Positions 43,944-55,556 of a DNA stretch of 64,000 nt are shown here, in pieces. The DNA lies in NCBI GenBank assembly GCA_963747385.1, contig CAVVEY010000019.1:69048-133047 (forward strand), in the 5' to 3' direction. The notes beneath the pieces were generated by a model. That model saw nothing but the letters and a program-made list of their open reading frames with translations, had not been told where the DNA came from and ran no database searches. The position numbers and the translations under genes were made by a program. The stretch comes from an uncultured bacterium (GTDB lineage Bacteria; Krumholzibacteriota; Krumholzibacteriia; Krumholzibacteriales; Krumholzibacteriaceae). Each line of letters begins with the position of its first letter. Position 1 is the first letter of the stretch.

Positions 43944-45008
43944 GTGATGATTTATCACAAATTGTGCAGTACCGAAATGGAGGGTTCTGTGACCAATAGC
44001 ATCTTCCAGGGCAAGCGGATTCTCGTTACCGGGGGCACCGGCTCGTTCGGCCACTTCATCACCAAGGAGCTCATCGCTTTCCATCCGGCGGAAATCCGCG
44101 TATTCAGCCGAGACGAGAAAAAACAGGACGATATGCGCAGGGAATTCGAGAATCAGGTCAACGTCACCCTCGTCATAGGCGATGTGCGGGACGCGAATGC
44201 GGTGCGCAAGGCGGTGCGCGACATCGATCTGATTTTCCACGCCGCCGCGCTGAAACAGGTTCCGAGCTGCGAGTATCATGTGCACGAAGCGGTGCTCACG
44301 AATATCATCGGTCCGCAGAACATCATCGCCGCGGCCATCGAGGAAGAGGTCGACAAGGTCATTGCGATCAGCACCGACAAGGCGGTGAAGCCGGTCAATA
44401 CGATGGGCATGACGAAGGCGCTCCAGGAGCGGCTGTTCATCACGGCGAACATGTGGAAAGGCTCCAAGAAAACGGTATTCGCCTGCGCGCGGTACGGCAA
44501 CGTGATCGGTTCCCGGGGATCGGTCATTCCCCTGTATAAGGAGCAGATCGAAGCGGGAGGCCCCGTCACGATCACCGACGGGAACATGACCAGATTCATC
44601 CTGCCCCTTTCCGACGCCATCCAGCTCGTGTTTCTGGCGATCAACCAGTGCGTGGGCGGAGAGATCTACGTGCCCAAGATCCCCGCCATCAAGATAAAGA
44701 CGCTGGCCGACCTCATGATCGAAAAATTGGGTGAAGGGAAAAAGATCGAAATCAAGGACATCGGCATACGGCCGGGAGAGAAGATTCACGAGGTTCTCAT
44801 CTCCGAGGAGGAACGGTTCCGCACGATAGACAACGGGGATTCCTACGTCATTCTGCCGAACATCCAGCTGCCGGGCGTATGGGACAACTACCGGGATCGG
44901 AAGCGCGTCGACGGAGAATTCTTCGAATACTGCTCGGAGGACGCCGAGAAATACACGAAGAAGCAGCTCGTGGAAATTCTTGTCAAGGAAGGCATATTTC
45001 CTGCATAA
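43944..45008 (+). CDS. UDP-N-acetylglucosamine 4,6-dehydratase (PseB/CapD/FlaA1-type short-chain dehydratase)
   Basis: ILVTGGTGSFG Rossmann motif, Y-x3-K active-site region, PseB/CapD-like C-terminus. ~340 aa. Confidence 0.75.
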   Translation: MMIYHKLCSTEMEGSVTNSIFQGKRILVTGGTGSFGHFITKELIAFHPAEIRVFSRDEKKQDDMRREFENQVNVTLVIGDVRDANAVRKAVRDIDLIFHAAALKQVPSCEYHVHEAVLTNIIGPQNIIAAAIEEEVDKVIAISTDKAVKPVNTMGMTKALQERLFITANMWKGSKKTVFACARYGNVIGSRGSVIPLYKEQIEAGGPVTITDGNMTRFILPLSDAIQLVFLAINQCVGGEIYVPKIPAIKIKTLADLMIEKLGEGKKIEIKDIGIRPGEKIHEVLISEEERFRTIDNGDSYVILPNIQLPGVWDNYRDRKRVDGEFFEYCSEDAEKYTKKQLVEILVKEGIFPA

Positions 45009-45082
45009 TCCGTCCGATCGATCGACTGTGGGCGCCCCTGGTGCGCGACAATCCATTCACCGTCGAATGAAACGTTCCGGGA

Positions 45083-45826
45083 GTGAAGATGATCGGCAAA
45101 CTCTTCGTCTGCATCATGGCGTACAATGAGGAGAAGAACATCGGCCGGGTGCTCGCCGATGTGTCCGCAAGCGGTCTCGCCGACGAAATAATCGTGGTGG
45201 ACGACGCGAGCACCGACGGCACCGCCGCCGTCGTCGCTTCCCATCCGCGGGTGAAATACGCGAGGAACGAAACGAACAGGGGAATCGGCGGCACCGAGAA
45301 AAGGTTGTACGACGAATTCCTGAAGCATTCCGACGCCGACGACGACGTCATGGTCATCATGCACGGCGACGGCCAGATGCGCGTCGAGGAGCTGGGACTT
45401 TTCAAGGAGGCTTTCGAAACGACGGACGCGAGCGTCGTCCTTGGATCGAGATTGCTGGGCCGCAGCAACTTCTTCGACGCCGGACGCAGGCCGTTATGGA
45501 AGATCCTGGGGGATATCGCCGCCTGCACGTGTTTGAATATCGCGTTCGCCATGCGTCTTCATTCGTACGGGAGCGCGTTCCGCGGCTGGAAGCGGAGCGC
45601 GGTGGCGATCCTGAAATACAACGAGGGCTCGAACAAGGTCGTATTCGGCATCGAGATCATCGCCATGGCGAAGCTCCAGAACTTGAGGATGCGCGAGATT
45701 CCGATACAGACCGTGTGGAGCGATCTTGCCTTCAATTCAAATATCGCGAAATATGCGATCGACGTGTTCGGCTGTATGCTGAAGTACGGTCCGAAGATCT
45801 GGAAGGCGAAGCTGCGATTGGGTTGA
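45083..45826 (+). CDS. GT2-family glycosyltransferase (polyprenyl-phosphate sugar synthase, DPM1/GtrB-like)
   Basis: CIMAYNEEKNIGRVL...EIIVVDDASTDGT...HGDGQ are GT2 DxD/DPM1-type motifs. 247 aa. Confidence 0.75.
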   Translation: MKMIGKLFVCIMAYNEEKNIGRVLADVSASGLADEIIVVDDASTDGTAAVVASHPRVKYARNETNRGIGGTEKRLYDEFLKHSDADDDVMVIMHGDGQMRVEELGLFKEAFETTDASVVLGSRLLGRSNFFDAGRRPLWKILGDIAACTCLNIAFAMRLHSYGSAFRGWKRSAVAILKYNEGSNKVVFGIEIIAMAKLQNLRMREIPIQTVWSDLAFNSNIAKYAIDVFGCMLKYGPKIWKAKLRLG

Positions 45827-54085: not shown

Positions 54086-54089
54086 CGAC

Positions 54090-55556
54090 GTGACATCTCT
54101 CACAAAACGGGCGACCGTTCTCATCTTCTGCAGGATCATGAACTACGGCGTCATGTTCCTCTCCCCCGTCTTTCTCGTGCGGATCTTCAACAAAATTGAG
54201 GTCGGACAGTACGGCGAATTCATGCTCTATGCGGCATTGATCGCGGGCATCATCGAATTCACGATCAACACGAATTTGATATACTTCATCCCGAAGTACC
54301 CCGATCGCGAGAGGCAGAGCGTCACCCACACCGCGCTCCTTATTTTCATCACGAGCTTTATCGGATTGATCGCCGTCTACATCTTCAAGGGCCTTATTTT
54401 CGCGCGAACCAGCTACGATTTCATCCTTCCCCTCATCGCGTACATCTTCTTCTTCCTCAATTTCGAATTCTTCGAGAACTATTGGCTCGGGAAGAAGCGA
54501 ACCGATTACGTCCTTTACTACTCCTCGGGGCGAGTTGTCGTGCGGACCGCCGCCCTCATTATCTCCGCCTACGTCAGCCGCGACGTCATGACCGTCATTC
54601 GAACGCTGATCGTCGTGGAATTCGTCAAATGCCTTTTCGTTTTCGCGATGCTCCGCGGCGTGCTGACGAGGCGCCTCGATCGCGCGCTGCTCAGGGAGCA
54701 GCTCAGATTCATTATCCCCCTCGGTTCGGCCGGCGTGCTTGCCCTCATCAACACCCAGCTCGCGAATCTCGTCATCTCGATCAAGATGGGGGTGGAGCGT
54801 CTCGCGCTCTACACGATCGGCGGGAAGCAGATTCCGATCATCAATATCGTGCGGTCGAGCGTCATGGACGTGCTCTTCCCGGAAATGGCGCAGATCGGGG
54901 ACGCGGAGAGACTCCAGCTGTGGCGGCGGGCGAACGTCGTTTTCTGCTTTATGGTGTTTCCCGTCTTCGCCGTGTTCTTCTGCTACGCGCGCGTTTTCGT
55001 CGAAACGCTCTTCACCGCTGACTATCTCGCGGTCGTACCGCTCTTCAGAATCTACCTCATGTTGATGGTCATCCGATGCTTCGAAATGGGTACGCCGCTC
55101 CGAACGATCAATCAGAACAAGTATTTCATCTTCGGAGGCGTCCTGGATCTCTCGATCAATATCGGGTTCATCCTCCTTCTCTACCGGCCGGTGGGTTTTA
55201 CGGCGCCGGCGCTTTCGTTCGTTCTCGCCGAATGCGCCATCGCCGTGTACCTGGGAAGCAGAATCCTCCATTTCTACCGCATCCCCTTGCGGGAACTGTT
55301 TCTGTGGAAGAGGATCTTCATCATCCTCTGCTGCGCGGTGCTTGCGCTGCCCGCTCTCGTCGCGGGCAGATGGGTCAACCTCAACCCCGTCATCCGGGCG
55401 GTGTCGTTCTCGACCCTGTATTTCGTCGTCTACTACATCGCGATACGGCGGCTCAAGATTGACGACGTGGAGCTTCTCGTGGATAAGCTGGGGAGAAGAT
55501 TGAGCGCCGCGAAAGCCCGGATCGGCGAGAGGACCGCTCCGCCGCAAGGGCGCTAG
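54090..55556 (+). CDS. wzx: Oligosaccharide flippase (Wzx/MOP superfamily polysaccharide biosynthesis protein)
   Basis: 488 aa with ~12-14 TM helices and a PST-family pattern. Sits in a glycan cluster. Confidence 0.7.
   Translation: MTSLTKRATVLIFCRIMNYGVMFLSPVFLVRIFNKIEVGQYGEFMLYAALIAGIIEFTINTNLIYFIPKYPDRERQSVTHTALLIFITSFIGLIAVYIFKGLIFARTSYDFILPLIAYIFFFLNFEFFENYWLGKKRTDYVLYYSSGRVVVRTAALIISAYVSRDVMTVIRTLIVVEFVKCLFVFAMLRGVLTRRLDRALLREQLRFIIPLGSAGVLALINTQLANLVISIKMGVERLALYTIGGKQIPIINIVRSSVMDVLFPEMAQIGDAERLQLWRRANVVFCFMVFPVFAVFFCYARVFVETLFTADYLAVVPLFRIYLMLMVIRCFEMGTPLRTINQNKYFIFGGVLDLSINIGFILLLYRPVGFTAPALSFVLAECAIAVYLGSRILHFYRIPLRELFLWKRIFIILCCAVLALPALVAGRWVNLNPVIRAVSFSTLYFVVYYIAIRRLKIDDVELLVDKLGRRLSAAKARIGERTAPPQGR

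Follow-up and report, generated by a model that had tools for sequence, protein, structure and literature searches.

An accessory six-gene cassette with a split CapF and a cobalamin radical SAM gene, probably a lipid-carrier glycosylation unit of an uncultured Krumholzibacteriota bacterium

The subject of this study is a glycan-modification region in a 64,000-nucleotide stretch of DNA, hereafter the window, from an uncultured bacterium of the phylum Krumholzibacteriota. We find that the region consists of two units of different evolutionary status: a cassette of exactly six genes, found in some close relatives and missing from others, and a conserved backbone of envelope-glycan genes. The six genes run in the order dehydratase, family 2 glycosyltransferase (GT2), famA (a large membrane protein of GT-C fold), cupin, cobalamin-binding radical S-adenosylmethionine (SAM) enzyme, and short-chain dehydrogenase/reductase (SDR). 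The cassette probably makes a modified 6-deoxy-L-N-acetylhexosamine (6-deoxy-L-HexNAc), loads it on a lipid and attaches it outside the cell membrane. We put at roughly 0.6 the probability that it is a horizontally exchangeable, self-contained glycan-decoration unit, which works like the Gtr and Arn lipid-carrier systems and delivers a sugar modified by the radical SAM enzyme.

In this model a CapE/FnlA-type enzyme would convert UDP-N-acetylglucosamine (UDP-GlcNAc) to UDP-2-acetamido-2,6-dideoxy-L-hexos-4-ulose, the stand-alone cupin would epimerise this 4-ulose product, the cobalamin radical SAM enzyme would modify the sugar, with C-methylation the most likely reaction, and the SDR would reduce the 4-keto group. 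The GT2 would move the finished 6-deoxy-L-HexNAc derivative to undecaprenyl phosphate (Und-P), a flippase encoded outside the cassette would flip the lipid-linked sugar, and famA would attach this one sugar to an acceptor in the periplasm, which could be a glycan of the envelope or a protein. We infer the lipid carrier, the topology and the acceptor as well as the catalytic steps, the latter from homology.

An accessory cassette inserted in a conserved backbone

The GC content of the whole window is high (0.62), which crowds the raw lists of open reading frames (ORFs); the real genes were therefore picked by GC at third codon positions (GC3) and by Pfam and NCBIfam domain searches of the window ORFs. 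For comparison we used loci that bear homologues of these genes, numbered with the prefix L, of which L008 and L009 come from close Krumholzibacteria relatives. In L009, ~88% identical to the window in the flanks, window position 43756 is joined directly to position 50520: blastn pairs L009 3844-8967 with window 38630-43756 and L009 8961-19805 with window 50520-61324. L008 has its gap at the same place. Because both relatives join the flanks directly, the 6.76 kb from 43757 to 50519, which hold the six genes, are an insertion. Further loci do carry the cassette. L010 has it at the same site as the window, the 6.7-kb contig L007 has it at 95% identity, and L001 has it at 76-86% nucleotide identity with an entirely different right flank. 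Its GC content is 0.563 versus 0.637 and 0.613 in the flanks, yet as evidence for transfer this composition is weak, backbone membrane genes being low in GC too. The ends of the cassette show no repeats, direct or inverted; integrase, transposase and tRNA genes were not searched for. L007 and L010, which are independent metagenome contigs, both stop within ~70 nt of the right junction (window ~50572-50590), which suggests that strains differ in having the cassette and that assemblies break at this point as a result.

The backbone reads peptidyl-prolyl isomerase, two tetratricopeptide repeat proteins, hypothetical protein, lipoprotein, methyltransferase, famB (a second GT-C-fold gene), Wzx, phosphopantetheinyl transferase (PPTase), a gene resembling non-ribosomal peptide synthetases (NRPS-like) and MurB. 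It is syntenic in L008 and L009, while L015 keeps methyltransferase, famB, Wzx and MurB without the PPTase and the NRPS-like gene; none of these three loci has the cassette. The methyltransferase stands beside famB at 82-88% identity in all three, and Wzx adjoins famB in them and in L024 and L034. The core conserved throughout the phylum reads famB-Wzx-(PPTase/NRPS)-MurB-famA-like-M24-Wzy_C, and the methyltransferase, famB, Wzx and the Wzy_C-like gene are a separate envelope-glycan locus conserved across Krumholzibacteriota.

The initial annotation of the region, made from the sequence alone, had treated all of these genes as one system, in which Wzx flips the product of the GT2. Such an integrated surface-glycosylation system, with the GT2, Wzx, both GT-C proteins, the methyltransferase and the Wzy_C-like protein cooperating, Wzx as the flippase and the two GT-C proteins serving different acceptors, seems to us unlikely. 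The genes are physically adjacent, famA-like genes, famB, Wzx and Wzy_C-like genes co-occur in L002, L020, L024, L026 and L027, and a flippase of the MOP/MATE type serves a Und-P-linked sugar system in Citrobacter (PMC11127046). Yet L008, L009 and L015 keep the methyltransferase-famB-Wzx backbone whole and in syntenic order although they have no cassette, and the L001 cassette is not followed by this backbone on the right side. The backbone is thus unchanged where the cassette is missing, and Wzx is a conserved neighbour of famB rather than a cassette gene, which leaves its proposed role for the GT2 product unsupported. Moreover, famB is frame-disrupted in the window, and relatives have their core famA-like genes elsewhere, flanked by MurB and the M24 peptidase gene and without a neighbouring GT2.

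A split CapF pathway around a cobalamin radical SAM gene

The cytoplasmic enzymes of the cassette form a modified-sugar pathway, as the initial annotation had held, but its chemistry appears to be of the CapE/CapF type, leading to a 6-deoxy-L-HexNAc, and not the FdtA-type 3-keto or amino chemistry that was then envisaged. Two of the genes, the dehydratase and the SDR, had been left unnamed. The dehydratase matches Pfam Polysacc_synt_2 at E 1e-101, and its best PDB sequence matches are FnlA (4j2o, 8e-83) and CapE (8e-81), then PseB/FlaA1 (5e-72). In an alignment its motif NTMGMTK stands against NAMGISK in FnlA and NLYGATK in PseB, with Met replacing the catalytic Tyr. An MxxxK motif in place of the catalytic YxxxK is the hallmark of CapE (PMC3699295). 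The NCBIfam equivalog cut-offs are reached neither for FnlA (TIGR04130, 311 bits versus 730) nor for PseB (358 bits versus 407.75). A PseB-type dehydratase of a pseudaminic-acid pathway is ruled out by the higher FnlA and CapE scores and by the Met in the place of the catalytic Tyr.

Two domains share the work in CapF, the cupin acting as epimerase on the CapE product and the SDR as reductase (PMC5393024). The cassette encodes the two separately, and the cobalamin radical SAM gene lies in the middle and overlaps each of them; the stop codon of the SDR overlaps the radical SAM start. The single polypeptide of SDR and cupin that marks CapF/WbjC/FnlB is therefore split, and its halves match different parts of the same 372-position family, NCBIfam NF047837 (WbcJ). 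The SDR covers positions 1-181 as its top NCBIfam match (E 1.8e-27; Pfam Epimerase, E 2e-38), and the cupin covers positions 253-366 (E 8.5e-20). The best PDB match of the cupin is to residues 249-366 of Cap5F (E 3e-12), against 1.5e-4 for FdtA, so that the gene annotated initially as an FdtA-like isomerase is better described as the C-terminal cupin of CapF. An FdtA-type 3,4-ketoisomerase was dropped accordingly, the CapF/WbcJ cupin being the better match.

L001, L010 and L011 share the SDR-radical SAM-cupin order. The dehydratase joins these three in L011, at 41-57% identity, where the surrounding polysaccharide locus is unrelated and has no GT2/GT-C pair, and because the four-gene module recurs there, the radical SAM enzyme is tied to the nucleotide-sugar pathway. 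Compared with the CapE/CapF/CapG pathway to UDP-L-N-acetylfucosamine (UDP-L-FucNAc; the enzymes are also known as WbjB/WbjC/WbjD and FnlA/B/C), the cassette shares the CapE-type MxxxK dehydratase and holds both CapF domains, the SDR reductase and the cupin epimerase (PMC3699295, PMC5393024). It differs in that CapF is divided into two genes around a cobalamin radical SAM gene, that no CapG-type 2-epimerase is found in the cassette, and that all matches are below equivalog cut-offs. Because a CapG-type enzyme is missing, the product is unlikely to be L-FucNAc itself, and the scores of the enzymes likewise suggest that it probably is not.

The presence of a B12-binding radical SAM enzyme, already annotated initially, is borne out by strong matches to both of its domains (PF02310 B12-binding, 70.9 bits with a cut-off of 32.1; PF04055 Radical_SAM, 84.2 bits with a cut-off of 29.5) and by the CxxxCxxC core motif, CPYMCSFC, in its translation. 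Since homologues run to 416-437 aa, the 455-aa ORF is an upstream extension, and the gene most likely starts at 49525, which gives 416 aa. Which reaction would it perform on the sugar? By analogy, C-methylation is most likely, given that methylation is the commonest activity of characterised class B enzymes on sugars (GenK, GenD1, MoeK5, Fom3). These methyltransferases and the dehydratase AprD4 all act in antibiotic biosynthesis. The cassette enzyme resembles them in combining a B12-binding domain with a radical SAM core and in its genomic context of sugar modification, but it lies inside a CapE/CapF-type nucleotide-sugar pathway of the cell surface and reaches no curated family cut-off. The literature that we searched offered no relevant case of a B12 radical SAM enzyme in the nucleotide-sugar pathway of an O-antigen or a capsule.

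The GT2, famA and the lipid carrier

The initial annotation had proposed that the large membrane proteins of the region are GT-C transferases and not transporters, and structure comparison agrees for both of them: Foldseek searches with the models find GT-C enzymes and then noise. For famA, the 681-aa polytopic protein described there, an AlphaFold2 (AF2) model built from 12 sequences reaches a mean local confidence (pLDDT) of 78.5 and a predicted TM-score (pTM) of 0.82. Its top 18 PDB matches are all GT-C enzymes, at E 2e-7 to 2e-3, among them DPY19, STT3 in oligosaccharyltransferase (OST) complexes, AglB, ArnT, AftA and PglB; the next match stands at E 0.2. At the level of sequence famA has no match in Pfam or NCBIfam, nor by profile among PDB sequences. 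The motif S155-D156-x3-H160 (RSDxxxH) is invariant and follows the fifth helix of the model. Because loops 57-65 and 115-128 are positively charged, the positive-inside rule applied to the model helices would put this SD motif in the periplasm, at the start of the first large extracytoplasmic loop, where GT-C enzymes have their catalytic acidic residue.

A profile search of 1.84 billion representative sequences returned 1438 famA matches at E<=1e-3 and 294 at E<=1e-30, and the labelled ones in species-representative genomes are nearly all from Krumholzibacteriota. Relatives often carry a famA-like GT-C gene of 32-40% identity between MurB and M24 (L008 18152-20203, L024 6001-8046). In the window the MurB-M24 gap is ~140 nt (61277-61414) and holds no such core copy, so that the cassette famA is the only one. 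Two more distant loci with famA homologues, L002 1-3999 and L006 1-8464, hold further sets of GT2, LPG_synthase_TM and GT-C (DUF6541 or PMT_2) genes together with acyl-carrier, AMP-ligase and acyl-CoA dehydrogenase genes; several lipid-carrier glycosylation units per locus appear to be present there.

The GT2 named by the initial annotation is a real gene (Pfam Glycos_transf_2, 74.8 bits with a cut-off of 23.3). Its stop codon lies 16 nt upstream of the famA start, the GT2-famA pair is kept in L001, L007 and L010, and in further loci GT2 genes related to it occur close to homologues of famA or famB. Its best NCBIfam matches, all sub-threshold, are PpgS (1.9e-10; 40.6 bits against a cut-off of 370), AglJ (2e-9; 37.2 against 325) and the dolichyl-phosphate (Dol-P) hexose transferase (4e-7), and among PDB entries it matches dolichol-phosphate mannose synthase (DPMS, 5mlz) at 5e-4. 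Given these matches to synthases of polyprenyl- and dolichyl-phosphate sugars and its position beside a GT-C gene, the GT2 is a candidate polyprenyl-phosphate sugar synthase, in keeping with the lipid-phosphate pathway to which the gene had been assigned. A lipid-linked donor used by a GT-C enzyme is the hallmark of periplasmic glycan modification (PMC11127046).

How does the cassette compare with known systems of this kind? The Gtr systems (GtrA/GtrB/Gtr* of Shigella and Salmonella, and ORF12-15 with GT136 in Citrobacter youngae; PMC11127046) also place a GT2-type gene beside a GT-C gene, are accessory and exchangeable units as the cassette is, decorating a pre-existing glycan as the cassette would do, and include some GT-C enzymes with an additional domain for carbohydrate binding, which famB also appears to have. 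Unlike them, the cassette has no GtrA, SMR or MATE flippase, the nearest MOP gene being the Wzx gene of the backbone, and it brings its own four-enzyme nucleotide-sugar pathway. Its GT2 is short, at 247 aa, and in sequence famA resembles neither Gtr or GT136 nor any other solved GT-C enzyme. A second group of systems transfers amino-sugars by way of polyprenyl phosphate, namely ArnC/ArnT, FlmF/FlmK of Francisella, LgmA/B of Bordetella and PpgS/Rv3779 of Mycobacterium. In these, as proposed here, a small GT2 puts an amino-sugar on polyprenyl phosphate and a GT-C enzyme moves it on; PpgS is the top NCBIfam match of the cassette GT2, albeit far under its cut-off, and ArnT is among the structural matches of the GT-C proteins. 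The sugar of the cassette would differ, being a 6-deoxy-L-HexNAc derivative and not 4-amino-4-deoxyarabinose (Ara4N), galactosamine (GalN) or glucosamine (GlcN), and the cassette lacks a deacetylase or formyltransferase.

Several results weigh against the lipid-carrier model. The GT2 falls below all curated polyprenyl-phosphate synthase cut-offs and could be an ordinary cytoplasmic glycosyltransferase; the cassette has no flippase gene, and no small GtrA-like membrane ORF occurs anywhere in the window; the TM-scores of famA to known GT-C structures are 0.35-0.46; and the radical SAM enzyme reaches no NCBIfam equivalog, with PhpK and HpnJ at ~150 bits versus cut-offs of ~600, while its best solved relative is the diol-dehydratase AprD4 (6e-16) and not a methyltransferase.

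The first two of these would fit a cassette whose contribution is limited to an unusual nucleotide sugar and to a GT2 of the conventional cytoplasmic kind, which adds this sugar to a repeat unit built on undecaprenyl diphosphate (Und-PP), with famA as polymerase, ligase or an OST of the STT3/PglB kind. Among the top matches of famA, STT3, AglB and PglB do have E-values similar to those of DPY19 and ArnT, and a Wzx gene, whose product would flip Und-PP-linked oligosaccharides, lies nearby. Such a role is nonetheless improbable, more so than the integrated system discussed above: the cassette contains neither an initiating phosphoglycosyltransferase nor further glycosyltransferases, the GT2 and GT-C genes are tightly paired, and the nearest families of the GT2 (PpgS, AglJ, the Dol-P-hexose transferase and DPMS) are typical of lipid-monophosphate donors.

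The radical SAM results bear on the product and leave the rest of the lipid-carrier model as it is. The enzyme might deoxygenate the sugar in the manner of AprD4, with the SDR paired to it as AprD3 is, or rearrange its ring in the manner of HpnJ or OxsB, and the product would then be a deoxy or rearranged amino-sugar and not a C-methyl sugar. We regard this as a possible but minority outcome. The relationship to AprD4, an HpnJ score equal to that of the PhpK methyltransferase family, and the upstream SDR that is translationally coupled to the radical SAM gene speak for it. However, the AprD4 match spans the radical SAM core only (182-393), the NCBIfam AprD4 family scores 70.6 bits with a cut-off of 500, the B12-binding domain scores well, and characterised class B enzymes acting on sugars are mostly methyltransferases. 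A bolder version of the lipid-carrier model is that the SDR-radical SAM-cupin trio makes a new C-alkylated or radical-rearranged 6-deoxy-L-hexosamine nucleotide sugar for the cell surface, which famA delivers via Und-P. famA would then be the founding member of a new GT-C family and, like DPY19, its best structural match, might act on proteins and not on polysaccharide. This version we regard as less likely than not.

The disrupted famB, its neighbours and the meaning of the cassette

The initial annotation had described famB as a paralog of famA of ~850 aa, the second transferase of one elaborate system. We find that famB is not intact here. The GC3 signal leaves frame 0 for frame 1 near 52.35 kb and enters frame 2 near 53.0 kb, and an intact 856-aa homologue from L002 aligns in tblastn to three frames in order, at 50, 45 and 46% identity. 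A DNA alignment with three relatives places 1-nt insertions specific to the window at ~52429 and ~53104, neither of them in a homopolymer. When one base is removed at each junction, the result is a protein of 850 aa that matches the L002 homologue over its whole length and has 59 homologues at 85-40% identity, all intact, almost all of ~853 aa and mostly from Krumholzibacteria. Two further genes are damaged. The NRPS-like gene, intact with 954 aa in L008, aligns in frames -2, -3, -1 and -2 with in-frame stops and long out-of-frame stretches, and the M24 peptidase gene, ~395-410 aa in relatives, aligns in frames 1, 2 and 3 with shifts near 61845 and 61985. Each of the six cassette genes aligns in one piece over its full length, and so do the methyltransferase, Wzx, PPTase and MurB genes. 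The clustering of damage in famB, the NRPS-like gene and the M24 gene argues for real gene decay; that all shifts go the same way, by an extra base, that a housekeeping-type peptidase is hit, and that errors are plainly visible in the related long-read contigs L007 and L010 argue for assembly error.

Given this disruption, famB was modelled through P0013, an intact homologue 85% identical to it (pLDDT 90.3, pTM 0.90). The top 21 PDB matches of this model are all GT-C enzymes, followed at E ~8e-3 by carbohydrate-binding domains of Wzt. The C-terminal beta-sandwich of P0013, residues ~685-857 (window ~53560-54085), matches the Wzt domain 8dky at E 8e-3 with a TM-score of 0.55. The Wzt domain recognises methylated O-antigen caps, and the neighbour that famB keeps, in divergent orientation, is a methyltransferase gene. 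Sub-threshold Pfam matches occur in 10 of 40 famB members for Dpy19 (PF10034, best 2.9e-7) and in 9 of 40 for DUF6541 (PF20176, best 1.8e-9); neither family is matched by P0013, by the famB pieces of the window or by famA.

Are famA and famB paralogs? The initial annotation called them clearly collinear. The word overstates the case, in that tblastn of famA finds no famB in the window and paralogy at BLAST level was rejected, but collinearity itself stands, as hhalign recovers two collinear blocks. These are the C-terminal soluble domain (probability 97.8%, E 9e-13) and an N-terminal block, 28-204 versus 28-213 (probability 69%, E 4e-5). In the latter, D156 of famA (RSDxxxH) is aligned with D160 of famB (TSDSPDH), a shared SD(S/A)xxH in which the Asp and the His are invariant in both families. 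From these alignments, famA and famB are only remote homologues. Both have their top structural matches in DPY19 and in STT3/AglB/PglB (GT-C class A), and the weak Dpy19 matches of some famB members point the same way. They differ from these enzymes in TM-scores of ~0.35-0.5, in four extra N-terminal helices before the conserved loop of the models, and in their C-terminal domains; nor did the famA and famB profiles give a meaningful match to any solved GT-C among PDB sequences.

The features of the region are collected in Table 1. The cupin, radical SAM, SDR and methyltransferase genes are all on the minus strand, which corrects the initial annotation; the methyltransferase and the Wzx gene are present as annotated, the latter with 54.1 bits to Polysacc_synt_3 (cut-off 23) and 48.6 bits to Polysacc_synt (cut-off 28.2). 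Residues 1-472 of the L008 Wzx homologue align to window 54138-55553. On the 3' side of Wzx follow the PPTase, the NRPS-like gene, MurB, the M24 peptidase gene and the Wzy_C-like gene. For the last of these a resemblance to O-antigen ligases had been noted; a Pfam Wzy_C match is indeed found, but it is weak, at 24.1 bits with a cut-off of 31.7, in a gene cut by the window end. Many Krumholzibacteriota loci have a homologue of it, 46-73% identical, on the downstream side of MurB/famA-like genes. On the left of the insertion, at 41279-43719 (-), a 404-aa hypothetical protein and a 409-aa predicted lipoprotein belong to no Pfam family and are syntenic in L008, L009 and L010.

Table 1. Features of the cassette and of the adjoining backbone, in window coordinates
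Feature	Coordinates	Strand	Remarks
CapE/FnlA/WbjB-type UDP-GlcNAc 4,6-dehydratase/5-epimerase (predicted)	43944-45008	+	354 aa; Polysacc_synt_2
Small GT2, candidate polyprenyl-phosphate sugar synthase	45083-45826	+	247 aa; Glycos_transf_2
famA, GT-C-fold membrane glycosyltransferase (predicted)	45843-47888	+	681 aa; polytopic; AF2 model
Stand-alone cupin, putative equivalent of the CapF/WbjC C-terminal C3-epimerase domain	47893-48294	-	133 aa
Cobalamin-binding (class B) radical SAM enzyme	48275-49525	-	416 aa; likely start 49525
SDR, putative equivalent of the CapF/WbjC N-terminal 4-ketoreductase half	49522-50400	-	292 aa
SAM-dependent methyltransferase	50542-51372	-	276 aa; Methyltransf_11/25; backbone
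famB, GT-C-fold glycosyltransferase gene, frame-disrupted	~51531-54085	+	~850 aa once reconstructed
Wzx-like MOP-family flippase	54090-55556 (start possibly 54138)	+	Polysacc_synt_3
PPTase	55553-56302		intact
NRPS-like gene (A-T-thioesterase)	56434-59290	-	broken
M24 peptidase gene	61414-62609	+	split over three frames
Wzy_C-like (O-antigen ligase/polymerase-like) gene	62606-64000, runs off the window	+	sub-threshold Pfam Wzy_C

What would the cassette mean for the biology of these bacteria? The region matches no well-characterised O-antigen locus gene for gene, as the initial annotation had expected. The presence or absence of the cassette at one site among close relatives is a clear case of surface-glycan diversification by cassette exchange. 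If the lipid-carrier model is true, lipid-carrier-dependent periplasmic glycosylation in the manner of Gtr and Arn would extend to the uncultured phylum Krumholzibacteriota, and famA and famB would be two GT-C families without a Pfam or CAZy-style assignment and without a sequence link to solved structures. The underlying logic is well precedented, and the finding is in this respect incremental and does not change the paradigm. The compact four-gene module would make a cobalamin radical SAM enzyme part of the CapE/CapF route to amino-sugars, and the product of the module would likely be a new bacterial sugar. This radical SAM/CapF module is the most novel and the most testable element of the cassette, and it is tractable for reconstitution in vitro.

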